This document shows positions 10,291 through 57,946 of a stretch of DNA of 64,000 nucleotides, one piece after another. Every line of letters begins with the position of its first letter. The stretch's first letter is position 1. The position numbers and the translations under genes were made by a program. The notes under the pieces were generated by a model, which was given only the letters and a program-made list of their open reading frames with translations, was not told the DNA's origin and did no database searches. Origin of the DNA: Alphaproteobacteria bacterium (lineage in GTDB: Bacteria; Pseudomonadota; Alphaproteobacteria; CAAGCB01; CAG-977). The stretch is from the NCBI GenBank assembly GCA_024413465.1, contig JAKSVU010000001.1, positions 90,934 through 154,933 of the forward strand, given 5' to 3'.

Positions 10291-10874
10291 AGTATTTCTT
10301 TATTTAATTGTTCGTACAGAAGTAAAAGTGAAAAATAATCGGTTAAGCTTGTTATAGAAATTTTCAACTCACTGTTTGTAAAATTGACAATGAATTTGCC
10401 AGCAATTTCATTTCGAGGTGGAATAATTGTAAAGGAAGAAATTTGTTTTAGATTATAAATAGTTACTCCATACTGATCGGATGATTTAAAAAAATTGAAA
10501 ATTTGTTTTTTTGTTAAAATTATAAATTCACCAGAATTTTCTAATTCAATAGAAAAAGTAATATTTTCGATTTTTTCAAAATCTGAAAAAAGAAGATTAA
10601 CTTGTTTTGATAATATTTTGTTTTTACTTAATATATTGTTTTTTAAAGTGGTAATTTCATCTGCAGAAATTTCTTCTCTTGGTTTTATATTTCCTGAAGT
10701 TTTGCCAAGATTTAGCTCATTAGCTTTATCTTTTACATCATTTAATTTTTGTTTTGCTTTTTCTGTAAGTTCATTTACATCAAGATTCTTAGCTTTTTCA
10801 ACAACTCCTCCTAAAAAACCTGATAATTTTTTCCCAACTTCTTGAACTTTTTCATTTGACTGCAATTCTGCCAT
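10287..10874 (-). CDS. Hypothetical protein: amphipathic N-terminal helix and possible PH-like C-terminal domain
   Basis: 195-aa ORF with GGAGG RBS, between malQ and mltB, overlapping the mltB start. Confidence 0.7.
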   Translation of the reverse strand: MAELQSNEKVQEVGKKLSGFLGGVVEKAKNLDVNELTEKAKQKLNDVKDKANELNLGKTSGNIKPREEISADEITTLKNNILSKNKILSKQVNLLFSDFEKIENITFSIELENSGEFIILTKKQIFNFFKSSDQYGVTIYNLKQISSFTIIPPRNEIAGKFIVNFTNSELKISITSLTDYFSLLLLYEQLNKEIL

Positions 10875-13033: not shown

Positions 13034-13052
13034 CTATTCCTATACCTCTTTA

Positions 13053-15329
13053 TTATTTTACAAAAAATAAATCAGATAAATCTTTCGCTGTTGCTACTGG
13101 TCCAAAAGCCCCATAGGTTATGTAGTCCAATTTATCTAGATCTGTTATATTTGCAACGATTTTACTTAAATATAAATCTTTTGCATCACGATTTGTTGAA
13201 AAATGTTCATTTTTATATGGATTTTCTGTTGAAAAAATAAGAAATGACCAAGCTGGAACTGAAATTTTTTCACCAACGTTTACAGAATTTTTTATCTCAA
13301 AGGAAATATCTGTTTGAGATGTATCTAAAATCAAATTCCATTTGTTACATGCTGAGTATTCAGGAATTGTCCAATCAATATTTTCATTTTCAGCATTCAA
13401 AATAAAAAGTAAGTGATCTTGGAAAGTAAGGATATCTTCTCTTTCTTGATTTCCAGATATAATAAGTCCCAATTTTTTTAAACTAGAGTCATTCCATTCT
13501 GTGTTTGTTAATTCACATCCGTTCTGAGCTATCCACGTGATGTCTTTTGTTCCGAATATCTTTTTTCCAGAATAGTAAGTTCTTCTTTGAAAAATTTTAT
13601 TTTTCTTTCTAAATTTTATGAGTTTTTTCATAAATTCAAAAAATAAGATATCTTCACTAGATTTATCATCCCAATTGAGCCAACTAATTTCACTATCTTG
13701 GCAATAAGCATTATTATTCCCTTTTTGAGTACGACCAAATTCATCTCCAGCTGTAATCATAGGTGTTCCTAAGGACATCAATAATGTAGTCATCATTGCT
13801 TTCATTCTTTTATATCGCAATGATATGATGTTTTTATCATTAGAAACCCCCTCACAACCACAATTCCAAGAATTATTGTCATTTGATCCATCATTGTTAT
13901 TTTCGCAATTTGATAGATTGTTTTTATTATCATAACAAACAAGATCTTTTAATGTAAAACCATCATGAGCTGTAATGAAATTTATACTTGACCAAGGATG
14001 CCTACTTCTATAATTGAAAGTTTCACTTGATCCTGATAAACGACAAGCTAAGTTTCCAATTTGACCAGAGTCCCCTTTCCAGAATTTACGCACAGTGTCT
14101 CTAAAACGATCATTCCATTCGCTCCACCCTGGAGGAAATGCTCCAATTTGATAACCACCCAATCCTACATCCCAAGGTTCTGCAATCATTTTAACTTTTT
14201 GTAAAATAGGATCTTGTTGAACAGCAGAAAGAAAAGGTGAATTTTGTGAAAAGCCTTGAGAAGTTCTAGCTAATGTTGTTGCTAAATCAAATCTAAAACC
14301 ATCAATATGAAATTCTTGAACCCAATATCTTAAAGAATCCATTACTAATTGTAAAACACGAGGATGTTCAACATTAAAAGAAGCTCCACAACCAGTCGAA
14401 TCTTCGTAATATCTAGGATTATCATTATTGAGTCTGTAATAAACAGCATTATCAATACCACGGAATGATACGGTAACTCCCATTTGATTGCCTTCACCAG
14501 TATGGTTATAAACAACATCCATAATTACTTCAATTCCAGCATCATGAAATATTTTTACCATATTCTTTATTTCAGAAATATCATTGCTATGTAAATATGG
14601 TGTATGTGGTGCAAAAAAACATATAGGGTCATATCCCCAATAATTTGTTAAATTATTTTTTAACAAATGTTGTGGTGTAAAAAATGCTTGTATTGGTAAT
14701 AATTCAACAGAAGTAATCCCTAAATTTTTAAAATAATTAATGGATGTTGTAGTTGACATAGCTTCAAATGTACCACGAACTTCCTTATCAATTTCGCTAT
14801 TTCTAAAAGAGAAACCTTTTAAATGAGTTTCATATATAATTGTATCTGACCATGGAATTTGGGGATACACATCTCCATTCCATAAAAATTTATCGTCAAC
14901 AACTCTACATTTAGGTACATAAGCAGCACTATTGTTTCTATCTAGTGTAAGATCTTCTTTTGCAGTTCCTGATCTGTATCCTTGCATAGATGGATGGAAT
15001 ATAAGTGGTCCCGTAATAGATTTTGCATAAGGATCTAATAATAATTTGTTATGATTAAATCTATATCCTTTTTCAGGCTCAAAAGGACCATAAACGCGAT
15101 ATCCATATAATTGCCCAACAGAAATATTTGGAATGTACACATGCCATACTTCATCTGTTTTTTCTGGCATTAAAATTCTGCATAATTCTTCTTTGCCACT
15201 TTGGTCAAATAAACAAAGATAAACTCGTTCAGCATTTGCAGAAAAAATTGCAAAATTTACCCCAAAACCATCCCACGTTGCCCCTAATGGATATGGAGAA
15301 CCATTCAAAATTGTTAAATTATCCAACAT
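13053..15329 (-). CDS. glgX: Glycogen debranching enzyme (isoamylase, GH13)
   Basis: PLGATWDG, NYWGYDP, DVVYNHT, GFRFDLA, AEPWD, AHDGFTL, GNNNAYCQD. Confidence 0.96.
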   Translation of the reverse strand: MLDNLTILNGSPYPLGATWDGFGVNFAIFSANAERVYLCLFDQSGKEELCRILMPEKTDEVWHVYIPNISVGQLYGYRVYGPFEPEKGYRFNHNKLLLDPYAKSITGPLIFHPSMQGYRSGTAKEDLTLDRNNSAAYVPKCRVVDDKFLWNGDVYPQIPWSDTIIYETHLKGFSFRNSEIDKEVRGTFEAMSTTTSINYFKNLGITSVELLPIQAFFTPQHLLKNNLTNYWGYDPICFFAPHTPYLHSNDISEIKNMVKIFHDAGIEVIMDVVYNHTGEGNQMGVTVSFRGIDNAVYYRLNNDNPRYYEDSTGCGASFNVEHPRVLQLVMDSLRYWVQEFHIDGFRFDLATTLARTSQGFSQNSPFLSAVQQDPILQKVKMIAEPWDVGLGGYQIGAFPPGWSEWNDRFRDTVRKFWKGDSGQIGNLACRLSGSSETFNYRSRHPWSSINFITAHDGFTLKDLVCYDNKNNLSNCENNNDGSNDNNSWNCGCEGVSNDKNIISLRYKRMKAMMTTLLMSLGTPMITAGDEFGRTQKGNNNAYCQDSEISWLNWDDKSSEDILFFEFMKKLIKFRKKNKIFQRRTYYSGKKIFGTKDITWIAQNGCELTNTEWNDSSLKKLGLIISGNQEREDILTFQDHLLFILNAENENIDWTIPEYSACNKWNLILDTSQTDISFEIKNSVNVGEKISVPAWSFLIFSTENPYKNEHFSTNRDAKDLYLSKIVANITDLDKLDYITYGAFGPVATAKDLSDLFFVK

Positions 15330-15350
15330 ACCAAAAATAAAGTTCTGTAT

Positions 15351-17558
15351 TTATTGTTGAAGAATAAACATTACTGTTGCTAATGGTGGTAATCTAAATG
15401 ACAAAGAATATGGTCGATTATTCCACCCATCATTTTGTGTTTCAAGTTTTACAGAGTTAACTACTCCACTCCCACCATAAATTTCTGCGTCAGAATTGAA
15501 AATTTCAACATACTTACCTTCCTTAGGAACACCAATTTTGAAGTTTTCGCGAGGAACAGGCGTAAAATTTGAAACGACTACAACCATATCTTCTCTATTT
15601 TTACCATATCTGATAAAACTAAATACGCTTTCATCACCATTATTTGGGTCAATCCACTCAAAGCCATCTGGAGTATAATCTTGTTGATACATTGCTGGCA
15701 AATCTTTGTAAAGTTTGTTCAAATCTTTTACAGTGTTCTGAACCCCGCGATGCATAGGATCATTTAATAAATGCCAACTCAAAGAACCATTGTAATCCCA
15801 TTCTCTATCCTGAGCAAATTCTCCCCCCATAAATAACAATTTTTTACCAGGGAAAGCATACATAAATCCGTAATAGGCACGTAAGTTAGCAAATTTTTGC
15901 CAACGGTCTCCAGACATTTTATTTAACAAAGAACATTTTCCATGAACTACTTCATCGTGGCTTAATGGTAAAACAAAGTTTTCATTATAAGCATACAACA
16001 TTCCAAAGGTCATTTTATTATGTTGATATTTTCTGTAAACAGGATCTAAAGACATATAGTCTAAAGTATCATGCATCCATCCCATATTCCATTTATAACC
16101 GAATCCAAGTCCTCCCATATAAGTTGGTCTTGAAACCATTGGCCATGCTGTTGATTCTTCTGCAAAAGTTGCTGCACCTGGAGCATTTGCATATACAAGC
16201 TCATTTGTCTTTTTCAGAAATTCAACAGCTTCTAAATCTTCATGTCCACCAAATTTATTTGGAATCCATTCACCAGCTTTTCTGCTGTAATCAAGGTAAA
16301 GCATGGAGGCAACAGCATCTACTCGTAAGCCATCTATTTGGTATTCTTTGTTCCAGAATAAAGCATTTGATGTCAAGAAGTTACTAACTTCGCGTCTATC
16401 ATAATTGTAGATTTTTGTTCCCCAGTCACGATGTTCTCCACGTCTAGGATCCGCATGTTCATATAATGCAGTTCCATCAAAGTCAGCTAAACCAAAAGAA
16501 TCCTTTGGAAAATGGCCGGGAACCCAATCCATAATTACACCTATTCCTGCACTATGAAATGCATCGACAAGTTCCTTAAATTCTAATGGATTACCAAAGC
16601 GACTTGTCGGAGCATACAACCCCGTAGCTTGATATCCCCACGATCCATCAAAAGGATGTTCATTTACTGGAAGCATTTCAACATGAGTATATCCCATGTC
16701 TTTTACATAATTCACTAAATCTGAAGCCATTTCTTTATAAGACAAATAAGAGTTATCTTCAAAGTGTCTCTTCCATGATCCTAAATGAACTTCATAAATT
16801 GAAATAGGTTCATCTAAGGCATTTAATTTTTCACGTTTTTTGGACCATCCTTTCGATTTCCATTCATATTGATTGATATCAAAAACAACAGAAGCTGTGG
16901 AAGGTCTCTTTTCTGCATAGAATGCAATTGGATCTGCTTTTAAAGGCAAAATATTACCATCTGATGAAATTAATTCATATTTGTATAAAGCTCCTTGTGT
17001 GATGTGTGGAATAAAGATTTCCCAAATTCCAGATGATCCACGAGGTCTCATCATATGTCTACGACCATCCCACTCATTAAAAGGGCCAACCACAGAAACG
17101 CGTTTTGCATTTGGTGCCCAAAGAGCAAAAACAACTCCATCAACGTTATCATGTTTTATGACGTGAGCACCTAGTCTATCATATTCGTCTAAGTGTGTTC
17201 CTTCTGACATATAGTACAAATCCATTTCACCTAATACTGGTGGAAATCTGTAAGCATCTTCAGTATCGTAACTTTCTCCCTGCCATAAATCGATTCTTAA
17301 TCTATATTTGAAAAAGTCCCAATTTGAAGGAAATTCATATTGGAATAAACCTGAATTATGTACACGCTCCATTTGAGCCATAATATTTCCAGTTTCATAT
17401 TCTAAGATATATACATTCTGAGCTTGAGGTTGAAAGGTTCTTACAACTAATTCTCCATCTGTTCCTTCTTTATGCATACCTAAGATAGAGAACGGATCAC
17501 CATAACCAGATGTAACAAGAGCTTCAACAACATTTTCATCTAAAAAATTTTTCATCAT
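15351..17558 (-). CDS. glgB: 1,4-alpha-glucan branching enzyme
   Basis: WAPNA, YEVHLGSW, SWGYQ, DWVPGHF, RVDAVASM, EEST, LSHDEVVHGK; start placed at the ATG behind a GGAGA RBS. Confidence 0.97.
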   Translation of the reverse strand: MMKNFLDENVVEALVTSGYGDPFSILGMHKEGTDGELVVRTFQPQAQNVYILEYETGNIMAQMERVHNSGLFQYEFPSNWDFFKYRLRIDLWQGESYDTEDAYRFPPVLGEMDLYYMSEGTHLDEYDRLGAHVIKHDNVDGVVFALWAPNAKRVSVVGPFNEWDGRRHMMRPRGSSGIWEIFIPHITQGALYKYELISSDGNILPLKADPIAFYAEKRPSTASVVFDINQYEWKSKGWSKKREKLNALDEPISIYEVHLGSWKRHFEDNSYLSYKEMASDLVNYVKDMGYTHVEMLPVNEHPFDGSWGYQATGLYAPTSRFGNPLEFKELVDAFHSAGIGVIMDWVPGHFPKDSFGLADFDGTALYEHADPRRGEHRDWGTKIYNYDRREVSNFLTSNALFWNKEYQIDGLRVDAVASMLYLDYSRKAGEWIPNKFGGHEDLEAVEFLKKTNELVYANAPGAATFAEESTAWPMVSRPTYMGGLGFGYKWNMGWMHDTLDYMSLDPVYRKYQHNKMTFGMLYAYNENFVLPLSHDEVVHGKCSLLNKMSGDRWQKFANLRAYYGFMYAFPGKKLLFMGGEFAQDREWDYNGSLSWHLLNDPMHRGVQNTVKDLNKLYKDLPAMYQQDYTPDGFEWIDPNNGDESVFSFIRYGKNREDMVVVVSNFTPVPRENFKIGVPKEGKYVEIFNSDAEIYGGSGVVNSVKLETQNDGWNNRPYSLSFRLPPLATVMFILQQ

Positions 17559-17559
17559 A

Positions 17560-19086
17560 TTATTCTCCATCAAAGTTAATTAATCTGGTTAATCCATTCA
17601 TTGGAATAGATACCCAATCAGGTCTATTAGCAACTTCATAAATTACTTCATAAAGAGCCTTTTCTAAAATAAACAAATTCAAAAGATCATTAGCAATTTT
17701 TGAATCATTTGGTACCGATTTTACACCGAATATTGTTTTAAAATATCCATCTAAATAAGCATCAGTTGTTTCTTGTTGCCATTTTTTTGCTAAAAGATAT
17801 TTTTCTTTTATCTGTTCTTTTGAAACGTACATATAAAGAGAGCCAAAAGCAGCATAATCAAAGGAACGAACCATTCCAGCTACATCTTTCAAAACACAAT
17901 GAGTATTCTGACGTTCATTAATAGGTTTTAATGGTTCTCCTTCAAAATCAAGAAGATAAAAATCATTGTTTGAAATGACAACTTGTCCTAAATGATAATC
18001 ACCATGATATCTTGTTTTGAAGCAAGATATATCTTGAGGAAGAAGTTTATTAACCTGTTTTTCAATTATATTCATACTTCTAATGAGTTTTTCTACTTGT
18101 GTTTTTACTTCACCTGATAAATTTGTAATATGCTCTTTTGCTACAGCAATTGTTTTCTCAGCCTGATTCAAAACTTGAGATTTCCAATCTTGTAAATCTT
18201 TAGTTGAAATCTTTACAGGGGAAAATATTTTATCAGTTCCCGTCGAAAAAGCTTTGTGCATTTCTGCAGTTCTTACACCTAAAAGATATGCTAATTTCAA
18301 ATAATTAGCATGATCAGTGAGGTTGTTTTCGTAAACATTTTTAAGATAAGATAATGTATAATTCCAACCATCTCCTTCATTTTGAACAAACTCTTGTAAA
18401 ATAGCTAAAGCAAGTTTTTTACCATTTTCTAGTTCAACTTCTATTTTGCCAAGATAAGCAGGAATATTTTCGAAATGAGCGTTTTCTGTTAAAAATGAAG
18501 AAGTTGTAATCTCTGGATTTTCACCATATTCAATTCTTCTGTAAACTTTCAACATCACTTTTTTACCAACAATTAGAGATGTATTGCTCTGCTCTACCCC
18601 CATTTTTTTCTGAGGTAATCCTCTTACAAGGTTTAATAATTTTTTTCCATAGGAAGTCGTATAAGAAATTAATTTACTTTTGTTTGATAGATTTATGGTC
18701 CTATCTTGTTCAAGGAATTGAAATAATTTTTCTGAAAAATTCGTAGCACCAGAAGCATCATAAATAATACCGACTTTATCATCAAAAGTTATATTAGCTA
18801 TAACATCAACAGAATCTATGTTATTTTCTTCAGAAAACGAAATACCTAGTGGTAAAACGAACATTGGATTTAAATTATCAGATAAATATGTTTTTAGGAT
18901 AACGAAAGCAAAGTCATTCTGTAAGATGAAAGTATTTTCAATTGAAATAGATTTTAAAACAGAGTCTTTTGCGCTATACCAACGTTTTGTTGGTATAAAA
19001 TCTTTTAATCTTAAAGACAAATCAGAAATAAATTTACTGTTTTGTAATAATATATTTAAATTATCTGACAACACACTTATTGACAT
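17560..19086 (-). CDS. mak: Maltokinase (Mak/Pep2), stand-alone, equivalent to the C-terminal half of TreS-Pep2 fusions
   Basis: KRWY, EQSNTS, LKVYRR, RYHGDYHLGQV, DFEGEP, EKALYEV..E...RPDW; AAGGAGA RBS before ATG 19086. Confidence 0.9.
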   Translation of the reverse strand: MSISVLSDNLNILLQNSKFISDLSLRLKDFIPTKRWYSAKDSVLKSISIENTFILQNDFAFVILKTYLSDNLNPMFVLPLGISFSEENNIDSVDVIANITFDDKVGIIYDASGATNFSEKLFQFLEQDRTINLSNKSKLISYTTSYGKKLLNLVRGLPQKKMGVEQSNTSLIVGKKVMLKVYRRIEYGENPEITTSSFLTENAHFENIPAYLGKIEVELENGKKLALAILQEFVQNEGDGWNYTLSYLKNVYENNLTDHANYLKLAYLLGVRTAEMHKAFSTGTDKIFSPVKISTKDLQDWKSQVLNQAEKTIAVAKEHITNLSGEVKTQVEKLIRSMNIIEKQVNKLLPQDISCFKTRYHGDYHLGQVVISNNDFYLLDFEGEPLKPINERQNTHCVLKDVAGMVRSFDYAAFGSLYMYVSKEQIKEKYLLAKKWQQETTDAYLDGYFKTIFGVKSVPNDSKIANDLLNLFILEKALYEVIYEVANRPDWVSIPMNGLTRLINFDGE

Positions 19087-19096
19087 TTCAATCTCC

Positions 19097-21208
19097 TTAC
19101 CAACCGTGATCAATTACAGTTACCCGATATATTTCTGCTTGATTTCCTGCTGGATACAAATTTATCCATAATTCGTTACCACGAACATCAAATTCACGAC
19201 CACTCAAAAGTTCCTCAACATGAAATCTTCCGGCCCAAGCAACATTCATTTCTTCTGTCGGGAACCAGATTCTTCCTGATTGACCATTGTAAGGATCCAA
19301 ACTCAAAGCAACAAAAATCATATTGCTACAATCTTCTGTCATTTTCCCGTAGAACAAAATATTATCGTTTTCAGAAGTATAAAATCTTAAATTTTCATAA
19401 TTTTGCAATGCAGGATTTTCACCACGAATCCAGTTTATAGATGCTATTAAATCTTTAATATTTCCTTCTTGATTCCAATCTCTTGTCCTAATTTCATATT
19501 TTTCTGAATTATTAAATTCTTCTTTTCCGTATATACCGTCATTTTCGCATAGTTCATATCCATTCAACATGCCGTAGGATGGAGAAAGAGTTGCTGCTAA
19601 AATGAATCTGATAATAAATGCGGATCTTGGAGCATCATGTAGGTAAAACGGCATGATATCCGGTGTAGTTGGAAATAAATTTGGCCTAAAAAATTCTTTC
19701 AGATGAGATTGGGTCAATTCTGAAAAATATTTTGTTAATTCATATTTATTTTCTCTCCAAGTGAAATAAGAATACGATTGAGAGAAACCAATTTTTGCAA
19801 GCATTTGCATCATTGGAGGACGAGTAAATGCTTCTGCTAAAAATAACGTATCTGGATATATTTTTTGTACTTCTCTAATAACCCATTCCCAAAATGGAAC
19901 AGATTTTGTATGAGGATTATCTATTCTAAATATACGAATTCCCTCATTGGCCCAAAATAGGAACGTATCTCGAAGTTCTATCCATAATGCCTCAGAATTT
20001 TTTCCATAAAAATCAACATTAACAATATCCTGATATTTTTTAGGTGGATTTTCAGCATATTTAATTGTTCCATCTGGTCTAAAAGTAAACCATTCTGGAT
20101 GTTCTTTTATCCAGGGATGATCAGGAGAACATTGAATTGCAAAATCTAAGGCAACTTCCATTCCTAATTCTCTTGTTTTTGAAACAAAAGAACGAAAATC
20201 ATCCATAGTGCCTAATAAAGGATTTATTGCCTTATGTCCTCCATCAGAATTTCCAATGGCATACGGAGATCCAACATCATTAGGATTACACTCTAAAGAG
20301 TTATTTTTCCCTTTTCTGTGTGAATATCCAATTGGATGTATTGGTAATAGATATACGACATCAAAACCCATTTTCTGAATATCAGGTAATCTTTTTTCAG
20401 CATCTTTAAAAGTACCGTGTTTCCCAGGAATTGAGCTTTGACAACGAACATTCATCTCATACCACGCTGAAAATCTTGCTCTTTCACGATCAACGTAAAC
20501 TTCTAATTCTCGGTCATATCTTGTAGCCTGATTTCTGTCAGGCCATCTATCCATAGCTTCACAGACTTCTGGATGCATTAATAATCCTGCTCTATCGTAC
20601 ATATCTGTAGATTTATCAAAATAAAATAAAGCTTCTTTTAACAGGTTTAAATCTGCTTTTCGAGTCAACTCATCTCTAGAATCGTTCATGTTTTCTAAAC
20701 GTTCTATTGCTTTTTGAACCATTCTAGATCCTTCGATTAGCTCTAGAGATACATCTTGGCCAGCTTCAATTTTTTTACCGGTTCCATCTAACCAAGTACC
20801 ATATTCATCAACCCAAGCTTCAATCGTATAGACATATCTTGTATTAGTTCCAAACCAAAGAGTTCCTTCCCATTCTGCTAGTCCGTGATTTGTTTCATAC
20901 ATAGGCGTTTCCCACCATTCATCAGAATCTGCATAACGGCAAAGAATAGCAGCTTTTAACAGATCATGACCATCTTTAAAGATATTAGCAGAAACATGCA
21001 TTGTATCACCAACTTCACGTTTTACTGCAAAACGACCTTCATCAACCTGTGGATACACATTCTCTATGGTAATTGGTGAACTAGCGGCTAAATCCATCAA
21101 ATGGTTATGTTTTTCCTTAATTACCCAACCTCTTTTGCTAACGTCTTTTATATCTGAACCAGATAAAACAGGTGTTCTTTTGGGTTTAATTTGTCGGATA
21201 TTAACCAT
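19097..21208 (-). CDS. glgE: Alpha-1,4-glucan:maltose-1-phosphate maltosyltransferase
   Basis: RARFSAWYE, PIHPIG, GSPYAIG, YAENPPKKYQDI, RIDNPHTK, FLAEAFTRP; start placed at the ATG behind a GAGGAA RBS. Confidence 0.95.
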   Translation of the reverse strand: MVNIRQIKPKRTPVLSGSDIKDVSKRGWVIKEKHNHLMDLAASSPITIENVYPQVDEGRFAVKREVGDTMHVSANIFKDGHDLLKAAILCRYADSDEWWETPMYETNHGLAEWEGTLWFGTNTRYVYTIEAWVDEYGTWLDGTGKKIEAGQDVSLELIEGSRMVQKAIERLENMNDSRDELTRKADLNLLKEALFYFDKSTDMYDRAGLLMHPEVCEAMDRWPDRNQATRYDRELEVYVDRERARFSAWYEMNVRCQSSIPGKHGTFKDAEKRLPDIQKMGFDVVYLLPIHPIGYSHRKGKNNSLECNPNDVGSPYAIGNSDGGHKAINPLLGTMDDFRSFVSKTRELGMEVALDFAIQCSPDHPWIKEHPEWFTFRPDGTIKYAENPPKKYQDIVNVDFYGKNSEALWIELRDTFLFWANEGIRIFRIDNPHTKSVPFWEWVIREVQKIYPDTLFLAEAFTRPPMMQMLAKIGFSQSYSYFTWRENKYELTKYFSELTQSHLKEFFRPNLFPTTPDIMPFYLHDAPRSAFIIRFILAATLSPSYGMLNGYELCENDGIYGKEEFNNSEKYEIRTRDWNQEGNIKDLIASINWIRGENPALQNYENLRFYTSENDNILFYGKMTEDCSNMIFVALSLDPYNGQSGRIWFPTEEMNVAWAGRFHVEELLSGREFDVRGNELWINLYPAGNQAEIYRVTVIDHGW

Positions 21209-21357
21209 TGCTATTTCCTCATAAAAAATAAAAATTTTCAATAGTATAATCAATAATAAATTGAAATACTATAAAATATTCTTACAACTTTTTTATTAAT
21301 TGAAAAAAAAAACTTGATTTTTTGATATATATACATAATATGTTCCTGTATCTGGAT

Positions 21358-45546: not shown

Positions 45547-47826
45547 TTAAAACTGATGGGTTAAAAGATATTCAAAACTCCATGGGAAAATAAAATTAGG
45601 TAAAATTTGATTGTTTCTTCCTGTATAAATAAAACCTAATGGTAAAACATCACTTGTAGTATTTTCTACTTGATTACGAATCCATTCGTGATTATACGGT
45701 AAAGAAATACTTTTAATTTTAGATATTTTTTTTCTACTTAAGATACGAGAAATTATACTTTTTTCTATTTTACAATATAAACATCCATTTTCATTAACAG
45801 AAATTAAAACAGTATTACCTAATGACGTTTCATTTCTTATAAAGTTATCGATATCTGTAGTTATTTGAGGATCGCTGTATTGCATAGGTAAGAAAAAAGT
45901 ATTTAAACAAATAAGTATAATAAAATATTTTATACCTATTTTGTTTAACAACGTAAATAAAATAAAAACACAAAAAGCACATAAGGTAAATTGCAAAACT
46001 GTACATTGAATAAAAATTATACAAGTTAATAAAGTACAAGAAATAAATAGCGGAATATAAATTAATTTTTTTATTTTAGAATGATATTTATCCATAAATT
46101 TAATTCTCATAGATAAATAAAACAAACTACTCATAATTATAAAATGAATAATGTATATTGTGACTATATAAAATATTGGGCTTTGCTTTATGAGAGAATA
46201 TAAATTGTATTGTATTGATAATAATGGAGAAATTAAAGGTAAAATTACAGTAAAAATTCCAACAACAAAACCTTGCTTTTGTGATGACCATTCTACAGAC
46301 TTCTTTTTCAAATTGATTAAAATAAATATGAAAAACACTAAATATAAGTAGTTTAAAAATATATAATTAAATTGCATTCCCCAAAATATTTTTGAATAGT
46401 GTAATGTAAATAAGGTGGCTACTATAAATAAAAACGAATACGAAAAGGATTTTATATATACATTGAAAAATTCTTCAGCTTCTTCACTATGCTCATTGTG
46501 TATGATTTTATGAAGAAAACTAAAAGCTCCCATTGAAAATGGAGTACATAAAAATAAAACAAAGAAATAAATTAAAAAAAATGAAATATTTTTTAATGAA
46601 AAAGAATAAAAATGGTTGCGTACTTCCTTTATTTGTAATTTTTGGTGAAGAAGATGTGTTGATCGTTCTTGGTGAATATAGACATCAATATCGCTAATAC
46701 CTTTTGATATTTGATCTGAATTTAATATTGGGAACTTATAAACATAATTATTTCCATCAGATAAAATAATTGGTGTTCCTGTAATAATATTTGATCCAAA
46801 TAAAAAAATATTACTCTTATTTGATAAAATTTTTTTTGAAATAGACAATTCTATTGTCTTTCTGTTAGGATAAATAAAGATTTCATTCAAGTTTATTTTC
46901 TTTCCAGAATTATTTAAGGATAAATATTTTGCTTGTTCTAATTGTATACAACTTTCTGAATAAACTGGAGATTGTTCAATTTGTAAAGATGTTGTTGGGA
47001 ATGTAATATTTTGACATTTATTATTAAAACAGATTGGTAAACTTAAATTAATATTTAAATTTACTTGTTGATTTTGATCTAAAATGTCCAATTCAAAAGG
47101 TAGAATCATTTCTTTTTTAAATATTAGATCTCCAGAAGAATTTTGTAGTGGAATAGGATAATAAAATTTATTTACATGAAAATTCTCTGATGAATTGTTA
47201 AAATCAAGGTGAATGAGATTATGCAATTCATTATTTTTTTTGAAAAGAACTGAATAACCATCATCTAATAACACCATTATTCCTGATAAAATTTTAGTTT
47301 GTTCTCTATTTTTTACAGCACAGGATGCTAAAAGTAATGCAGCTCCATTAATATATGTAGGTTTAGAAAAACACTTTTTTTGGATAATTGATTCAAAATA
47401 TTTTTCTGTTGGATTAATTTTTGGAACGACATATTTTACATTTTTCCATGTATCCCTATCATCAATATCTACAAATTTTTCAGGTTGATTTGGATGAGTA
47501 TTTTCAATTTGTTTATTTATTTCAGCAATAGCGTACTGAGCATATGTTTCAAAATCCTGTACTTTTTTGGAAATATTAGAAAGATATTCTACAATTGGAT
47601 CCGAGTTAACTTCGTTAATTTTTAAAATTTCATTTAAAATTTCTCCATCAGAAGCTCCTAAATTTTTATTTTTTTTATAAAAATCATATATATATTTTGT
47701 TTTTTGAGCTCTAGTTAGTTGCATATATTGCTCAAGATCTCCATATGTTAAAGGAATAATTTCAGCTTTTACTGAAAAACTAAATTGCAAAATAAATAAA
47801 ATAGAAATTAAGATTGATTTAAGCAT
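45547..47826 (-). CDS. Divergent DsbD/DipZ-like membrane protein
   Basis: Signal peptide, periplasmic domain with ICFNNKC, multi-TM block, thioredoxin-like GCLYCK; divergent from a YqgE gene as dsbD often is in alphaproteobacteria. Confidence 0.6.
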   Translation of the reverse strand: MLKSILISILFILQFSFSVKAEIIPLTYGDLEQYMQLTRAQKTKYIYDFYKKNKNLGASDGEILNEILKINEVNSDPIVEYLSNISKKVQDFETYAQYAIAEINKQIENTHPNQPEKFVDIDDRDTWKNVKYVVPKINPTEKYFESIIQKKCFSKPTYINGAALLLASCAVKNREQTKILSGIMVLLDDGYSVLFKKNNELHNLIHLDFNNSSENFHVNKFYYPIPLQNSSGDLIFKKEMILPFELDILDQNQQVNLNINLSLPICFNNKCQNITFPTTSLQIEQSPVYSESCIQLEQAKYLSLNNSGKKINLNEIFIYPNRKTIELSISKKILSNKSNIFLFGSNIITGTPIILSDGNNYVYKFPILNSDQISKGISDIDVYIHQERSTHLLHQKLQIKEVRNHFYSFSLKNISFFLIYFFVLFLCTPFSMGAFSFLHKIIHNEHSEEAEEFFNVYIKSFSYSFLFIVATLFTLHYSKIFWGMQFNYIFLNYLYLVFFIFILINLKKKSVEWSSQKQGFVVGIFTVILPLISPLLSIQYNLYSLIKQSPIFYIVTIYIIHFIIMSSLFYLSMRIKFMDKYHSKIKKLIYIPLFISCTLLTCIIFIQCTVLQFTLCAFCVFILFTLLNKIGIKYFIILICLNTFFLPMQYSDPQITTDIDNFIRNETSLGNTVLISVNENGCLYCKIEKSIISRILSRKKISKIKSISLPYNHEWIRNQVENTTSDVLPLGFIYTGRNNQILPNFIFPWSFEYLLTHQF

Positions 47827-48447: not shown

Positions 48448-49473
48448 TTATCTCCCACTCCTTACCGCTTTTAACTCAGCAATTTTTCTAATATTATTTT
48501 TCTTTTCTTCAAACATTCCTGATATTGGTTTTTCCCCCATTTTTGGGCGTTCTCGCTTCATATAATCTGGGCGAGTTGGAATACTTCTTAAAGATGGATC
48601 AGGTTCCATTCCAGTCAATTCTTTTCTTAATTTAAAGAAATCGTTCATATCATCCATTGCTTGTTCTGCAACATCTAAAAATTTACCACCTTCTAGACGT
48701 TTTGGATCATTAATGTAATAATTTCCATTTTTTGTCCAACCTGCCATTGCAATAGCTTCTTCGGCAGACATCGTTTGTTTATTATAAAATAAAGTCGGTT
48801 CTTTTCCTTGTTTAATTTCATAAATTTCCTTTGTCATTGGTTCTATTTGGTAAGCTTCCTCATAGACAGTCTTTGTTCTTTTTTGATCATACCAACCTTC
48901 AAATGTTGCTGTCATAACCGTATGATTGATTTCCCCTTCTTTTTGATAAGCTAAGCTAAAAGCACTTTCAATTTCCGGATATCTTGATTTAAATATTTCA
49001 TAAGGTTTTGTATCTCCCTGAAGAGCCAATTCTTTGCAAGCTGTTATTGCATACGTTTGGGCATCAGCTTCCATTGCTCTAAAAGAAATCAATTCAGAAC
49101 GAACATCCATTACTCCAAAAGCTTCATGAGCACCACGAACAAATTGTCCTGCATGGCGGCATTCATGACATAAAGTTCCTACCAACTTAGAATCAGATTC
49201 TTCTGGATTTAAGCGAACCCAATGTCCTGCTTCATCGCAAGCACCACAACAACGAACACCTGGTTCAAAAAAACTAAATTTAAAACCATTTTCTGCAGCA
49301 ATTTGCAAAGTTTCTAAACCACAAGAAGATTGTGCTAAATTGTTTACTAAAGCAATCATTCTTGGTTTATCTGCTTCTTTACACTCTGTCATATCAATAG
49401 CAACAACAGGTTTTACGCTAGCATCATATTGTTTTGTTTTATTCTCATTTTCAAAGATATTATTAAGAGTCAT
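48448..49473 (-). CDS. Putative zinc metallopeptidase (DUF6782-like), paralog 2, C-terminal ...VRSGR
   Basis: TLCHECRHAGQ and RAMEADA; paralog of the adjacent gene; start uncertain (49473-49494). Confidence 0.7.
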   Translation of the reverse strand: MTLNNIFENENKTKQYDASVKPVVAIDMTECKEADKPRMIALVNNLAQSSCGLETLQIAAENGFKFSFFEPGVRCCGACDEAGHWVRLNPEESDSKLVGTLCHECRHAGQFVRGAHEAFGVMDVRSELISFRAMEADAQTYAITACKELALQGDTKPYEIFKSRYPEIESAFSLAYQKEGEINHTVMTATFEGWYDQKRTKTVYEEAYQIEPMTKEIYEIKQGKEPTLFYNKQTMSAEEAIAMAGWTKNGNYYINDPKRLEGGKFLDVAEQAMDDMNDFFKLRKELTGMEPDPSLRSIPTRPDYMKRERPKMGEKPISGMFEEKKNNIRKIAELKAVRSGR

Positions 49474-49490
49474 TTTTTTCATCCATATTA

Positions 49491-50537
49491 TCAACGAATT
49501 TTTGTAGCTTTTATTTTTGCAATTAAAGCAGTTTTCATATCCTTATTTGAATTTGCAATTTCTTTTCCATCATTTTTATGATGTCTTGTTTTTGCTGGTA
49601 AATTATATACATCACGCACAGGCATATCTAAATAAGAATTATCCATTTCAGATCCATACCGTTTATTTCTAGTAACAAAAAACTTATCACAAGCTGTAAT
49701 TGTTTCAGCACATACGGATAATTTTTCTTTTTCATTTAAAACATCTTTATTGTTATTCCAATAGCATTTACCTTCAGCATTTTGACAAAACATTGTTACT
49801 ATATCTGCCGAAGAAATTTTTTTATCATAAGGATAAGATTGTTCATCTTTATACTGAACAGCTTCATTCATAACATCTTGAATATAGCCTTCTTCATAAG
49901 CTTCAACCATATCGGTTGCTTTATACCATCCATTAAAAGCAGCCTGTAACATTTTGTCGGAAACAGGAGCATCTTTTGACGAAGCTGCATTCATAAATTC
50001 AGTGGCAATTTCAACAGAATCTGAAGAAAATGATTTCCAAGGACCATCGTTTCCACTATTTATTCGTATTTCATGACATGTCGCAGCTGCAGCTGTTTCA
50101 GCATCGGCTTCTTCAGCACGTGTATACATGATTTCACTTTTTACATTATATTGACCGAATTCTGCAGAAGCTCCACGACAGAACTGTTGAGCATGTCTTG
50201 CTTCATGAGCTAACGTAGCAATCAATAAATTATCTGGCAAAGTTGGATTCAAAACAATCATTCTACTATCTGGATCACAGAATCCACAGGAATCTTTTTG
50301 TTGTTCAAAACATAAGGTATATCCTGCAGAAGCAGCTTCTTCTAACACAGATTTTCCGAAAGGAGAACTTTCTGCAATTGTATTGATAAATTTTACTAAA
50401 CGAGCTTGATCTTTCGGTTTTCTAGCCTTTGTTTTAAAAGGAATTGCCTTTGATGGAACTTGTATTTGTTGGTTACCTTGATTCTTAGAACCTTGAGATT
50501 TTCTTTTTTTTGCAAAAACTTCATTTAATTCAGACAT
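49491..50537 (-). CDS. Putative zinc metallopeptidase (DUF6782-like), paralog 1
   Basis: TLAHEARHAQQ and RAEEADA; AAGGAGA RBS. Confidence 0.7.
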   Translation of the reverse strand: MSELNEVFAKKRKSQGSKNQGNQQIQVPSKAIPFKTKARKPKDQARLVKFINTIAESSPFGKSVLEEAASAGYTLCFEQQKDSCGFCDPDSRMIVLNPTLPDNLLIATLAHEARHAQQFCRGASAEFGQYNVKSEIMYTRAEEADAETAAAATCHEIRINSGNDGPWKSFSSDSVEIATEFMNAASSKDAPVSDKMLQAAFNGWYKATDMVEAYEEGYIQDVMNEAVQYKDEQSYPYDKKISSADIVTMFCQNAEGKCYWNNNKDVLNEKEKLSVCAETITACDKFFVTRNKRYGSEMDNSYLDMPVRDVYNLPAKTRHHKNDGKEIANSNKDMKTALIAKIKATKIR

Positions 50538-54138: not shown

Positions 54139-54241
54139 TTTTATTTTTGTCTATTTTTTTTATTTTTTTCGAAAATTTTTCTAGTTTTTTTTTTCTAAAT
54201 AGCATATTATCAAAGTAGCTTTAATTATTAGGGGATTTACC

Positions 54242-56878
54242 ATGGCTGTTTTAAACGAATATGAATTACATTTACTCGCTGTAATGGCAGGCATTGATGA
54301 ACATGCAACAATTGAAAACAAACAATCATTGTTAGTAGCTTTAGATGTACTTCAGCCTCAAGGAAATAAGACTGATCAAGAATATGCTGCAGAAATTAGC
54401 AAAACGTTAAATAACGCTTTGGATGAACAGTATGCAAATCCACTGCCTTCTGTTTGCGTTTTACGTAAAGATCGTGAAAGAAAAGTTGAATTTGTTGTTC
54501 CTGTTGGTCATGAAAATGAAAGTTTAGATTGGAATGTGAATCAGGAAAAGGGCGCAAAAATAAATGGTCAGGTAAAAATTGCAGATACAAGCATTTGTCT
54601 TGGTGTTGACGGACAACCTATGCGCCGAGAAATAAACGGAGTCACATATGAGCGCCGTTCGTTTGATTTAAATGCTGATATGGACATTGGTTACCATCAA
54701 TTAGAAGTTGAAATTCCTGGACAACCTAAGGCGTCGACTCAATTGATTCATGCTCCTACAAAATGTTATGACCCTATTGATATTAAAAACGGTGGAAAAG
54801 CTTGGGGGGTTCCTGTTCAATTATACGAACAACGTTCTGATGAAAATCAGGGAATCGGTGACTTCTCTGATTTAGCAGAAATTGCTGATACTGTTGGTAA
54901 GTGTGGAGCTGGTATCCTAGGAGTAAACCCATTACACGCTATGTTTCCAAATGCAGCTGAAGAGGCTTCTCCATATGCTCCAGCAAGTAGAACGTATTTT
55001 AATCATGTCTATTTGGATGTAACTGCTGTTCCTGAATTCGAAGAAAGTAAAGAAGCTACTGCATTGTATGATTCAGAAGAATACACAGCTAAACGTAGAA
55101 AAGCTCAAGATACTTCTGATGTAGATTATACTGCAGCTTTTGAATTGAAAACACCTATCCTTGAAAAATGTTATGATCAATTTGTAAAAAATGGTTCCGC
55201 CGATCGAAAAGCTAGATTCGAAGAATTTAAAGCTAATGGTGGAGATAGATTGAAAGATTTTGCATTATTTCAAACATTATGCGAGCATTTTGCAAATGAG
55301 GAACCAAAATTAACCGATTGGAGAGATTGGCCACCAGAATTTCAAGATTCCAAAACACCTGCAGTGAAAGAATTTGCTGAAAAAAATAAAGATAGAATCG
55401 GGTTTTATACATATTTGCAATTTGAAACATTAAACCAGATGGAAAATGTTCAAAAGGTTTGTAAAGACAGTGGTATGAAAGTTGGTTTATATACGGACAT
55501 TGCTGTAGGATCTGCTCCCTTTGGTTTTGAAGGTTGGGGATGTAAAGATTTGTATATGAAAGCATCCGCGGGTGCACCTGCAGACGTATTGAGTCCAAAT
55601 GGTCAGAATTGGGATGTAATGGGCTTTAAACCAAAAGCTTTAAAGGAAACAGCTTACCAACCATTTATTGAAATGTTACGCAATAATATGAAGACGGCTG
55701 GTTGTACACGTCTTGATCACGTTTTGCAATTAGCTCGTTTATATATGATTCCTCAAGGTAAGTCAGCAAAAGAAGGTGCTTTTGTTTATTATCCAGTTGA
55801 TGATCTAATGGCTGTTGCTGCATTAGAGTCTCACAGAAATAAATGTATGTTGATTGGTGAAGATTTAGGACAATTACCTCCAGGTTTCCAGGATAAGTTG
55901 ATGGATCATGGAATTCTGTCCTATCGTGTATTACCCTTTGAGCGTGAATGGGGATATCAAAATGGTGGAAATAATAATGCTTTCCGTCACCCTGAAGAAT
56001 ATCCTTTGTATTCAACTGCAGCTCCCTCTACGCATGATACTCCATCTTTAGCAAGTCAATGGACGGCACGTGATGTACATTTGAAAGATTATTTAGGTTA
56101 TTACGAAAGTTCTCAACAACGTGATTTGGAGTTTCGTCAATATGAATCTCAACGTTGTGCTTTAAACTGGGCTTTATATGAGAAAGGTTGCTGGGATCGG
56201 GTTGGTGCTCAACCTGTTTCTGATCCTGCCCATGATACTCGTTCTTGTCCTGAGAAGTATGAACAAGCTGTTGCAGATTACTTGGGACAATCACGTTCTG
56301 CTATGTTGTTATTCCCATTCTCTGATATGTTTAGAACAAACTATATGGGAAATATTCCGGGGACACGTCAACGGTCTGAATCTCAGGTTGGAGGTAAGGA
56401 TACAAAGATATTTGAACCTGGCGGAGCTAGCCGTATTCCATGGAAGAACTGGCGTCCAAAGATGCACGTTAAAGTAAATGAAATAAAAGAGATTCCTGTT
56501 TTCAAGGATATTGCAAATATTTTAAACTCTTATCGTACTGCTGGAAATGAAAATTCAAAAGAAAAAGTTTCTCAAGTATCTGATTTTAAACGTCCAGGTA
56601 GAACTGAAGAAAAACAACGTGATCCAAAACGTGTTGTTAAGTTGTATGAATCTTTAGCTCAATCAGGTTTCTTTAAAGAACATGCTTACGATATTATTGC
56701 TGCCAAATTTTCTGAAAAAAGAAAGCAACGTGATATTCAGAAGACGGAAGATTTTAAAAAGAATTATGAAGAGCGTCGTAAAGCAATTGAAGCTAAAAAG
56801 CAACAATATAATCAGGGTAAACCTGTTAATAATGTTGCTCGAGCAAGATTTAATTGCCAACGAAAACACTGTAGATAG
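54242..56878 (+). CDS. malQ: Second 4-alpha-glucanotransferase (GH77) with long basic C-terminal extension
   Basis: VQLY, GIGDFSDL, SPY, RLDH, IGEDLG, THD, NIPGT, NWR; ~113 aa beyond where the operonic MalQ ends. Confidence 0.9.
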   Translation: MAVLNEYELHLLAVMAGIDEHATIENKQSLLVALDVLQPQGNKTDQEYAAEISKTLNNALDEQYANPLPSVCVLRKDRERKVEFVVPVGHENESLDWNVNQEKGAKINGQVKIADTSICLGVDGQPMRREINGVTYERRSFDLNADMDIGYHQLEVEIPGQPKASTQLIHAPTKCYDPIDIKNGGKAWGVPVQLYEQRSDENQGIGDFSDLAEIADTVGKCGAGILGVNPLHAMFPNAAEEASPYAPASRTYFNHVYLDVTAVPEFEESKEATALYDSEEYTAKRRKAQDTSDVDYTAAFELKTPILEKCYDQFVKNGSADRKARFEEFKANGGDRLKDFALFQTLCEHFANEEPKLTDWRDWPPEFQDSKTPAVKEFAEKNKDRIGFYTYLQFETLNQMENVQKVCKDSGMKVGLYTDIAVGSAPFGFEGWGCKDLYMKASAGAPADVLSPNGQNWDVMGFKPKALKETAYQPFIEMLRNNMKTAGCTRLDHVLQLARLYMIPQGKSAKEGAFVYYPVDDLMAVAALESHRNKCMLIGEDLGQLPPGFQDKLMDHGILSYRVLPFEREWGYQNGGNNNAFRHPEEYPLYSTAAPSTHDTPSLASQWTARDVHLKDYLGYYESSQQRDLEFRQYESQRCALNWALYEKGCWDRVGAQPVSDPAHDTRSCPEKYEQAVADYLGQSRSAMLLFPFSDMFRTNYMGNIPGTRQRSESQVGGKDTKIFEPGGASRIPWKNWRPKMHVKVNEIKEIPVFKDIANILNSYRTAGNENSKEKVSQVSDFKRPGRTEEKQRDPKRVVKLYESLAQSGFFKEHAYDIIAAKFSEKRKQRDIQKTEDFKKNYEERRKAIEAKKQQYNQGKPVNNVARARFNCQRKHCR

Positions 56879-56880
56879 TC

Positions 56881-56909
56881 AAAAAAATCCCCTTACAGGG
56901 GATTTTTTT
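56881..56909 (+). terminator. Intrinsic terminator after the second malQ
   Basis: AAAAAAATCCCC-TTACA-GGGGATTTTTTT. Confidence 0.85.
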
Positions 56910-56930
56910 ATTAGAGTAAGATACAAAAAA

Positions 56931-57581
56931 ATGCTTTATTATTTTTTATCACAAATTGTAGGGAAAAAAACATTTAAAGATACTTTACCAAACGATGTAA
57001 AAGATAAAAGTTTTAAGAAAAACATTCGTAATATTTTAAATACTACCCTCTTAAGCAATCATCTTTTGAAAAAAAAAGAATTTGTAAACATAGCTGGACT
57101 TCCTGCTTCAGGGAAATCATTTTGGGCAAAAAAATTTTTAGAAAAAAATCCAGAATATGTTTATATAAGTTTTGACTTAATTATGGAAAAATTTCCAGAA
57201 TATCAAAATGATTTTAAATTAAATCCTAAATTAGCTTTTAATAGATGGGAACTACCTGCTCGATATTTAGGCTATTATCTTTTATTCAAAGCTATTTATT
57301 TAGGATATCCTGTTTTATTTGAACATTCTAACTCAAACATAAATCATATAGATTTGTACAAATCTATAAAGTCCTTTTATTACAATATGTCAATTTTTTT
57401 TATAAATGCTACTCCTGACATAGTTATATCTCGATTAAATACTAGAAAACGTTTTTTCCCAAAAGAGAGAATTCTAGAAAGATGGGACTTGATAAAAAGA
57501 ATAAATCCCCTATTAGAAAAAACAGTTCATCATTTTTATAATATTGAAGCCTGGATAAATGATTCTAATGAATATAAATAA
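56931..57581 (+). CDS. P-loop kinase, zeta-toxin-like
   Basis: AGLPASGKS Walker A, ISFDLIM...PEY, VLFEHS, RLNTRKR; start placed after the malQ terminator. Confidence 0.7.
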   Translation: MLYYFLSQIVGKKTFKDTLPNDVKDKSFKKNIRNILNTTLLSNHLLKKKEFVNIAGLPASGKSFWAKKFLEKNPEYVYISFDLIMEKFPEYQNDFKLNPKLAFNRWELPARYLGYYLLFKAIYLGYPVLFEHSNSNINHIDLYKSIKSFYYNMSIFFINATPDIVISRLNTRKRFFPKERILERWDLIKRINPLLEKTVHHFYNIEAWINDSNEYK

Positions 57582-57655: not shown

Positions 57656-57946
57656 ATGACAGATGAACAAATTCGTGAAGCTGCTTACTATAACTGGTTA
57701 AATAAAGGATGTCCAGAAAATGCTGATATCGAATGCTGGTTAGAAGCAGAAAGTGTTTGCCCGTGCTGTGGTAAAAAAGAATGTGAATGTGGTCCTGATT
57801 GTGAATGTCGCAAAGAAGGTCCATGCAGTTGTGAGTGTGAAGAAAAAAAAGCAACCAAAAAAAAGGTTTGCAAAAAAACAACAGAAACTGTTGAAAAAAA
57901 AGAAAAAAAGACCACAACAAAAACAGCTAAAAAAACAGCAAAATAA
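57656..57946 (+). CDS. DUF2934-like domain fused to a Cys-rich segment and a Lys-rich tail
   Basis: AAGGAGA RBS; EQIREAAYYNW..G.P......W..AE; 13 Cys in 96 aa; own terminator. Confidence 0.8.
   Translation: MTDEQIREAAYYNWLNKGCPENADIECWLEAESVCPCCGKKECECGPDCECRKEGPCSCECEEKKATKKKVCKKTTETVEKKEKKTTTKTAKKTAK

Follow-up and report, generated by a model that had tools for sequence, protein, structure and literature searches.

A second amylomaltase with a C-terminal extension

We analysed a stretch of 64,000 nucleotides (hereafter the window) from an alphaproteobacterial genome (GCA_024413465.1, contig JAKSVU010000001.1, positions 90,934 to 154,933 of the forward strand), the source genome G000, whose assembly is 97% complete and consists of 130 contigs. 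The window encodes two amylomaltases: MalQ1, the last member of the glycogen operon GlgE-Mak-GlgB-GlgX1-MalQ1 (10889-21253, minus strand), and MalQ2, which lies elsewhere and ends in a 112-residue tail that is the subject of this text, Table 1. Judged by its sequence, MalQ2 is a catalytically intact 4-alpha-glucanotransferase of the E. coli type (family GH77). It scores 406 bits with the malQ equivalog TIGR00217 of NCBIfam, above the cut-off of 205.65, and 577 bits with the PRK11052 equivalog, below the cut-off of 806 bits. The motifs RLDH, GEDLG and THD, reported as intact in the original prediction (made from the letters of the DNA and the translations of its reading frames), are all present, and the residues D492, E540 and D599 within them are invariant in an alignment of 31 sequences and pair with lridhv, igedlg and athd of E. 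coli MalQ (4s3p). We take these residues to be the catalytic nucleophile Asp, the acid/base Glu and the third Asp of GH77 enzymes. The start of the protein, MAV/ILNEYELH, is kept across 24 orthologues; by eye, no Sec or Tat signal peptide is present at this N-terminus (MAVLNEYELHLLAVMAGIDEH), which is hydrophilic, conserved and placed in a region of the MalQ fold.

Table 1 Features of the window discussed in the text
Feature	Position	Strand	Basis
MalQ1, untailed operonic paralogue, 715 residues	10889..13033	-	BLASTP, NCBIfam
GlgX1	13056-15329	-	family match
Putative maltokinase (Mak)	17563-19113	-	TIGR02457
GlgE	19100-21253	-	family match
Two tandem DUF6782 putative metallopeptidases, ends ...MKTALIAKIKATKIR and ...IRKIAELKAVRSGR (low-coordinate ends)	48448..50537	-	Pfam, motif score
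Shine-Dalgarno-like AGGGGA, 7 nucleotides 5' of the ATG	54230..54235	+	read directly
MalQ2 coding sequence, 878 residues and stop	54242..56878	+	reading-frame list, Pfam, TIGR00217
MalQ_N beta-sandwich domain, residues 68-172	54443..54757	+	Pfam PF21226, E 5e-15
GH77 catalytic domain, residues 198-710, with D492, E540, D599	54833..56371	+	Pfam PF02446, E 9.4e-96
Clade-specific insertion, about residues 706-733, PGTRQRSESQVGG...GGASRIP, 5' of the NWR motif	56357..56440	+	22-residue gap in MalQ1
Tail linker, hydrophilic, residues 766-790, with F-x-R-P-G-R-x-E motif	56537..56611	+	conservation, dN/dS 0.10
Tail helical module (predicted), residues 791-856: a pair of amphipathic helices followed by one of high charge	56612..56809	+	conservation, charge pattern, dN/dS 0.08
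Tail basic end, residues 857-878, net charge +6, terminal R; homologous to motif-bearing orthologue ends, degenerate in the source genome	56810..56875	+	matrix scores, dN/dS
Stop codon, then intrinsic terminator (hairpin and T-run)	56876..56913	+	hairpin energy, position kept in orthologues

Residues 22-766 of MalQ2 align with residues 29-715 of MalQ1 at 31% identity (BLASTP), and the alignment stops at ...IVNSSRI in MalQ1 and ...ILNSYRT in MalQ2, so that residues 767-878 (nucleotides 56540-56875) are without a counterpart in the operonic enzyme. This agrees with the original prediction, which had described MalQ2 as matching the operonic copy up to this point and then continuing. Its proposal that a housekeeping enzyme was duplicated is not supported in the sense of a recent event: beside the identity of 31%, in a tree of 50 sequences the MalQ2 clade is united with an SH-aLRT support of 100 and MalQ1 is not its sister, so the two copies are deep paralogues. 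Within the clade the first to branch is the copy from the genome G029 (43% identical, tail-less, ending in ...INKERK), followed by P0123, a longer protein described below, and then by all tailed forms. An insertion of about 22 residues preceding the NWR motif is found throughout the clade, the tail-less G029 copy included. Among 401 genomes sampled across the class (one of them, G265, is unpublished, and nothing rests on it), MalQ2-type genes occur only in the family of the source genome, in G134, which represents a second tail-bearing family, and in G029.

Conservation and anatomy of the tail

The tail consists of two layers, a module of about 90 residues predicted from sequence to be helical and a short basic end. 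It is present in all 28 genomes of the order, which fall into four genera of one family, and the 27 related loci come from uncultured Alphaproteobacteria of gut, rumen and faeces. All 24 complete orthologues are tailed, and 23 of these terminate in Arg. The ratio of nonsynonymous to synonymous substitution rates (dN/dS, NG86) is 0.07 for the core of the enzyme and 0.08-0.10 for residues 767-855; as dS is saturated at 1.2-1.7, the relative values alone are meaningful, and read in this way, the values indicate that residues 767-855 are under purifying selection. The tail of the source genome is no exception, since its ratio of tail to core dN, 2.81, is inside the range of the group (2.0-3.3), and a relaxation of constraint in this genome was therefore rejected. 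When the DNA of the tail is shuffled, the frame stays open in just 5 of 100,000 cases, and the tail has the same GC1>GC2>GC3 pattern as the body. A contig from an independent study spans the junction of body and tail without a difference (no read contig covers 56719-56815). The presence in all 28 genomes, the purifying selection, the bridging contig and the conserved terminator together led us to reject a stop-loss or an assembly artefact, and the tail can be considered a genuine addition, as had been proposed.

The conserved positions within the tail are in part specific residues (F782, R784 and G786 of the linker, kept in 17 diverse tails) and in part hydrophobic or aromatic ones, at 782, 798, 801, 802, 805, 810, 811, 815, 816, 818, 819, 823, 842 and 849. 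Despite these hydrophobic positions, a charge-hydropathy plot places the tail on its disordered side. It is strongly basic, with an isoelectric point of 10.0 and a net charge of +14, against 5.2 and -25 for the body, and the net charge of its last 22 residues places them in the top 2.9% of open reading frame (ORF) ends in the genome. A compensation of charge between tail and body was rejected: tailed and untailed MalQs have much the same median body charge (-21 and -20, p 0.79).

The module of about 90 residues is, in large protein collections, restricted to this GH77 clade or to fragments of its members. An exhaustive HMMER search of 1.84 billion representative sequences returned four matches, all of them MalQ2; in profile searches, the matches among longer proteins were GH77 enzymes in 32 of 32 cases, and those among proteins of near length were fragments in 10 of 10. 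Sequence and profile searches found no second copy of the module in the source genome. The tail has no match in the PDB, by sequence or by profile, and none among plasmids and phages.

A C-terminal motif common to MalQ2 and other proteins

The last 14 or so residues of most MalQ2 orthologues follow a pattern of approximately [VK]-[TQ]-A-[QN]-A-[AILM]-L-[KA]-K-K-x-x-[SG]-R-COOH, or, in a shorter form, A-A-L-K-K-x-x-x-[SG]-R-COOH. The terminal Arg alone is found in 24 of 25 orthologues, compared with 7.5% of ORFs genome-wide. We built a position matrix using only the 14 C-terminal residues of MalQ2 orthologues from other genomes, and applied it to the ORF ends of the source genome, taking the rate at internal windows as the expectation. 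By this measure 11 of 1844 ends pass, where 1.8 are expected. Two rounds of self-training, with a final score threshold of 5.9, raise the count to 27, a figure that is circular and can serve as an upper guide only. Among the controls, reversed N-termini gave three passes and shuffled ends seven, and composition thus contributes to the resemblance. Training in the reverse direction, on 27 ends of the source genome with MalQ2 and an adenosine-deaminase-like enzyme left out, recovered 16 of the 25 MalQ2 ends. Of 1684 frames at the loci available from other genomes, 38 pass, where 1.7 would be expected; among them are the adenosine-deaminase-like orthologues (5/5) and the GlgX2 enzyme of G134. A DNA repeat as the source of the motif was rejected, since the identity over the last 14 codons is 0.32-0.37, against 0.28-0.32 in controls, and the similarity lies at the level of protein.

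The motif bearers comprise GlgX2, the adenosine-deaminase-like enzyme, the DUF6782 peptidases and about 20 more proteins, often in tandem arrays (contigs C98, C43, C13 and C47). Of the 29 N-termini listed, most are hydrophilic and two resemble signal peptides. Several bearers outside the window start in the manner of MSELNEVFAKK, from which we conclude that they form a paralogous family. The DUF6782 pair in the window scores 19.1, a pass, and 4.1, under the threshold; the name DUF6782 was found in none of the papers searched. The adenosine-deaminase-like enzyme (C43:102062-103333, L051/L054) ends in a Lys/Glu/Arg-rich helical tail of about 85 residues, ...ASMIALRKKLSKNR, which is conserved in 28/28 genomes of the order and, by hhalign (probability 0.6%), shows no homology to the module of MalQ2.

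Two further basic tails were noted in the source genome. An aminopeptidase-N-like protein (C13:40040-42925) has one of about 75 residues, absent from the copy of a relative, and a 308-residue protein (C68:4024-4950) has a Lys-rich one of about 130 residues that ends in ...GVKKAGKR.

GlgX2 and a second set of glycogen enzymes

Outside the window, about 95 kb from MalQ2 on the same contig, lies a second, non-operonic debranching enzyme, GlgX2 (C1:242454-244718), which is 41% identical to GlgX1 and has a tail of about 25 residues with a motif-type end, ...DSVLAQMVKKHYSR. Inspected by eye, the GlgX2 ends of G000, G015, G005 and G134 are all motif-like (4/4). The GlgX1 ends, in contrast, are acidic tails with scores of -11 to -20, and none of five has the motif. 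The source genome has two parallel sets of glycogen enzymes, an untailed one encoded by the operon and a tailed one encoded by stand-alone genes.

A further link between the two tailed enzymes comes from P0123, a single protein of 1590 residues on one 37-kb contig, in which a MalQ2 body and module are joined to a GlgX2-like enzyme (50% identity to GlgX2). The sequence at the junction looks like a glgX gene beginning with its own Met, so that P0123 may be either a genuine fusion or a pair of abutting genes; either way it links MalQ2 with GlgX2, and a basic end stands at the C-terminus of the whole. A search of JGI metagenomes for independent copies of P0123 returned none, only distant MalQs of 33-34% identity.

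As to the fate of the products, MalQ in Pseudomonas supplies maltose to maltokinase and GlgE (PMC11046441), and with this precedent a capture of released products by Mak and GlgE, as originally proposed, is conceivable. GlgE is found in 27/28 genomes of the order and also in G134 and G029, a distribution that is compatible with such a capture and says no more than that.

Secretion systems in the lineage

A type IV secretion system (T4SS) is conserved in the order. VirB4 is found in 27/28 genomes, and paralogues of the type IV coupling protein (T4CP) in 28/28; both are present in 27/27 relatives of the source genome. The system is split between loci. In G023, the first locus holds VirB2, VirB4 and five unknown genes, and the second holds a T4CP and VirB8; the gene adjoining this T4CP ends in ...EMIAQRSMMGR, which at 2.8 scores under the motif threshold, and its homologues on contig C98 of the source genome are top scorers. 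The VirB4 orthologue of G134 is 67% identical, and VirB4 is present also in G029. The source genome itself has a half-locus (C87:15465-28541, L050) with two VirB8 genes, VirB9 (CagX and SPOR), VirB10 and VirB11, the VirB10 protein being 2332 residues long with about 15 beta-flower repeats joined to a TrbI/VirB10 domain. A VirD4-like T4CP paralogue of 746 residues (C65:13428-17041, L038) lies among housekeeping genes (ClpB, MutL, PGI). The adjoining gene encodes a pentapeptide-repeat protein whose C-terminus is rich in Arg, ...KRVRVKQRQRQRT.

A complete-looking type VI secretion system (T6SS) cluster is found in the source genome at C2:42000-55000 (L036), with Hcp twice, a short VgrG-like protein, ClpV, TssG, TssF, TssE, TssC, TssB and TssA. 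Its sheath gene (VipB) is present in 10/28 genomes (9/24 of the good ones) and absent from the tail-bearing G134. There are three TolC-family genes in the source genome and no secretin, so that neither an injectisome nor a type II secretion system is to be expected there. Cargo loading into an encapsulin was rejected, as the shell gene (PF04454) is found in 0/28 genomes.

Comparison with known systems

MalQ2 resembles E. coli MalQ (4s3p) in its MalQ_N and GH77 architecture and its catalytic Asp/Glu/Asp, the profile match extending from chain residue 90 to 693 of 696. The E. coli enzyme stops where the MalQ2 tail starts, and MalQ2 differs from it by this 112-residue tail and by the insertion before the NWR motif. 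The portions of reviews on prokaryotic alpha-glucan enzymes and amylomaltases that a term search covered contain no mention of a C-terminal extension of MalQ. Fusions of GlgX/MalQ, TreZ-MalQ and MalQ-TreY type (e.g. NCBIfam NF011082) couple an amylomaltase to a GH13 debranching-type enzyme much as P0123 does, and MalQ-GH13 fusions are common; in the source genome, by contrast, MalQ2 and GlgX2 are separate genes that have only the kind of C-terminal end in common.

The split T4SS with its duplicated VirB8 has what we take to be an rvh-like layout: at the level of genes, the split loci, the VirB8 duplication and the several large unknown genes after VirB4 all presumably have counterparts in the rvh system. 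The VirB10 of the source genome differs, being 2332 residues long and carrying beta-flower repeats. The rvh T4SS of Rickettsiales is described as rich in duplications (PMC4676284, PMC2653234).

Effectors of Bartonella, as described, carry a positively charged C-terminal T4SS signal behind a helical (BID) domain. MalQ2, likewise alphaproteobacterial, has a helical C-terminal module of about 100 residues followed by a short positive end, and a VirD4-type coupling protein is present. The difference is that the MalQ2 module occurs on one protein only, and here the short end, not the module, is common to several. The module was not found to be a BID delivery domain, having no Pfam family at E 0.1 and no PDB match.

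Exported enzymes of glycogen breakdown are known from other bacteria. MalQ, GlgX and GlgP of Chlamydia are secreted by means of N-terminal type III secretion (T3SS) signals (PMC4829429), and the Legionella amylase LamA is injected by a T4SS (PMC8262857). MalQ2, if exported as we infer, would likewise be a glycogen-degrading enzyme that acts outside the bacterial cytoplasm by virtue of a secretion signal. The signals in Chlamydia are N-terminal and T3SS-dependent, unlike the situation in the source genome, which lacks a secretin and in which the N-terminus of MalQ2 is an ordinary MalQ region. Furthermore, the bacterium that carries MalQ2 differs from both: it comes from gut or rumen and has flagellar motor genes, and no ATP/ADP translocase was found in it.

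Transcription unit and neighbouring genes

Directly 3' of the MalQ2 stop codon stands a terminator with a 13-bp stem and a T-run (-16.1 kcal/mol, z -4.8), and a comparable hairpin follows the stop in 26/26 genes examined (the window, 24 orthologues and G134). Of the original description as a monocistronic gene with its own terminator, the terminator thus stands; the monocistronic part is less certain, the gene 5' of MalQ2 lying on the same strand at a distance of 103 nucleotides, with no stable hairpin in the gap. Contigs from RNA libraries fall inside the body of the MalQ2 gene only and do not demonstrate transcription.

For the 299-residue ORF overlapping the tail, the most probable start is ATG 56931, past the terminator. 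The gene so defined (56931-57581, plus strand) encodes a P-loop kinase-like protein of 216 residues with weak Zeta_toxin/AAA_33 matches, and is not conserved as a neighbour of MalQ2 in relatives. It is followed by a 96-residue protein (57656-57946, plus strand) with an N-terminal DUF2934, a Cys-rich CxC/CxxC stretch and a Lys-rich end, 3' of which lies a strong bidirectional terminator. In at least 6 of the 27 related loci (L004, L005, L007, L009, L010 and L029) a gene of about 170-180 residues is found on the same strand 0.3-2 kb upstream of MalQ2. The copies scanned, those of L005 and L029, are ankyrin-repeat proteins, the other four being matched by N-terminal sequence only; the gene is absent from the window.

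Elsewhere in the window, a 195-residue ORF 3' of MalQ1 (10290-10874, minus strand) has no Pfam or NCBIfam match and is conserved in 26/28 genomes. Its membership in the glycogen operon was rejected, as relatives show no linkage between the two. A 759-residue ORF (45550-47826, minus strand) has no Pfam match.

What the tail may do

The interpretation that we tentatively favour, while placing it a little short of probable, is that the tail has at its C-terminus a sorting signal peculiar to the lineage, which the T4SS most likely reads, and that this signal marks a second, tailed glycogen-degrading pair, MalQ2 and GlgX2. We prefer it to a cytoplasmic docking arm on account of the conserved T4SS, the similar tails on other enzymes and the results of the motif matrix. 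In the mechanism that we envisage, the short motif-type end would be the sorting signal proper, and the module of about 90 residues a spacer or presentation arm that keeps this signal off the large folded enzyme, much as the spacer of the adenosine-deaminase-like enzyme might do. The coupling protein of the conserved split T4SS would be the most likely receptor of the end. MalQ2 and GlgX2 would then break down alpha-glucan (glycogen or maltodextrin) outside the cytoplasm of the producer, while the untailed set GlgE-Mak-GlgB-GlgX1-MalQ1 would make and turn over the glycogen of the cell itself. The tail for sorting or secretion that the original prediction proposed thereby gains indirect support, from the common C-terminal motif and the conserved T4SS, with export itself as the inferential step. 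That MalQ2 would act on the alpha-glucan of another cell, as the same prediction had it, goes a step further. One could go further and suppose that the T4SS and the motif together deliver at least about 25 proteins, among them MalQ2, GlgX2, the nucleoside deaminase and the peptidases, into neighbouring cells, which we would place on the unlikely side.

A number of observations weigh against a T4SS signal. On the side of the motif, the MalQ2 end in the window itself, VARARFNCQRKHCR, fits poorly with a score of -5.6; 9 of the 25 MalQ2 ends fail the matrix, only one of the four GlgX2 ends (that of G134) passes it, and the larger count of bearers is circular, as noted. The last 23 residues evolve fast (dN/dS 0.54), and a deeper tailed subclade of MalQ2, P0022-P0038, is without the basic Arg end. 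The module, found on one protein only, is unlike the delivery domains common to known effector families, and a search of the tail against Pfam gave no family at E 0.1, models of the Bartonella delivery domains being covered only if they are in the library. On the side of the machinery, VirB4, VirB2 and the 778-residue type of T4CP were not found in the 97%-complete assembly of the source genome, where five T4SS components are intact; from the latter we suspect that the VirB4 locus has been lost to a gap in the 130-contig assembly. The genome G029 has a T4SS VirB4 and yet a tail-less MalQ2. As for the biology, GlgP has an ordinary end with no tail, a transferase that merely disproportionates glucans would make an odd weapon if sent alone, and a search for an ATP/ADP translocase returned weak matches of 18-35 bits, with no sign of an intracellular lifestyle.

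A serious alternative to export, though less likely than not, is an intracellular role for motif and tail. The end, basic and amphipathic, would tether its bearers to an anionic surface or partner (membrane, pole or granule) or mark them for regulated proteolysis, and the module would bind MalQ2 to a partner in glycogen catabolism, GlgX for instance. A basic tail on an acidic body would suit such a role, as would a tail that is nominally disordered yet keeps its hydrophobic positions, which suggests folding on binding. The exclusive association of the module with MalQ2 points in the same direction, as do the joining of MalQ2 to a GlgX2-like enzyme in P0123, the frequency of MalQ-GH13 fusions in general and the occurrence of housekeeping-type enzymes (the adenosine-deaminase-like enzyme and GlgX2) among the motif bearers. 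The charge argument is weakened by the equal body charge of tailed and untailed MalQs, and P0123 is one contig that was never found again. Moreover, the motif bearers include many unknown proteins in tandem arrays and putative peptidases, a composition more like that of an effector set, and we know of no cytoplasmic system that reads a C-terminal end of this type. The original prediction offered as its own alternative a granule-binding or oligomerisation module; for the part of about 90 residues, which is found on no other protein, such a cytoplasmic role is possible.

It is improbable, in our estimate, that the tail is a structural or regulatory extension peculiar to MalQ2 in this lineage, with the resemblance between ends a by-product of a basic, Ala/Leu/Lys-rich composition in an AT-rich genome. 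The off-motif end in the window, the fast evolution of the end and the seven passes among shuffled ends are what such an extension would lead one to expect; several other enzymes of the source genome also have basic tails of varied sequence, and basic C-terminal extensions seem to be common there. What composition does not readily account for is the excess of passing ends with a matrix trained in other genomes, both in the source genome and in the others, the near-universal terminal Arg of the orthologues, the contrast between the ends of GlgX1 and GlgX2, and the fact that all five adenosine-deaminase-like ends pass despite their divergence.

Finally, export of MalQ2 by another route, as T6SS cargo, by type I secretion through TolC, or by a T3SS as in Chlamydia, is very improbable despite the full T6SS cluster and the three TolC-family genes of the source genome: the T6SS lies on another contig and its sheath gene is far more sparsely distributed than the tail, on which ground T6SS cargo was rejected, no secretin is present, the N-terminus of MalQ2 is the conserved MalQ region with no signal, and the basic, Arg-terminated end is unlike the known acidic signals of type I secretion.

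Implications

If the end common to these proteins is a secretion signal as favoured here, it would provide a sequence rule with which to list the effectors of a widespread, uncultured lineage of the gut and rumen. Ordinary metabolic enzymes (an amylomaltase, a debranching enzyme, a deaminase) would become T4SS cargo outside the classical pathogens, an echo of the exported glycogen enzymes of Chlamydia and the amylase of Legionella. Should these proteins indeed be delivered to neighbours, this would suggest a nutrient-raiding lifestyle with a set of effectors that is legible from protein C-termini. If the motif is instead a tag for sorting or turnover within the cell, it would still amount to an undescribed C-terminal code common to dozens of proteins. 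In either case, the presence of untailed and tailed enzyme sets in one genome makes the question testable by tail swaps.

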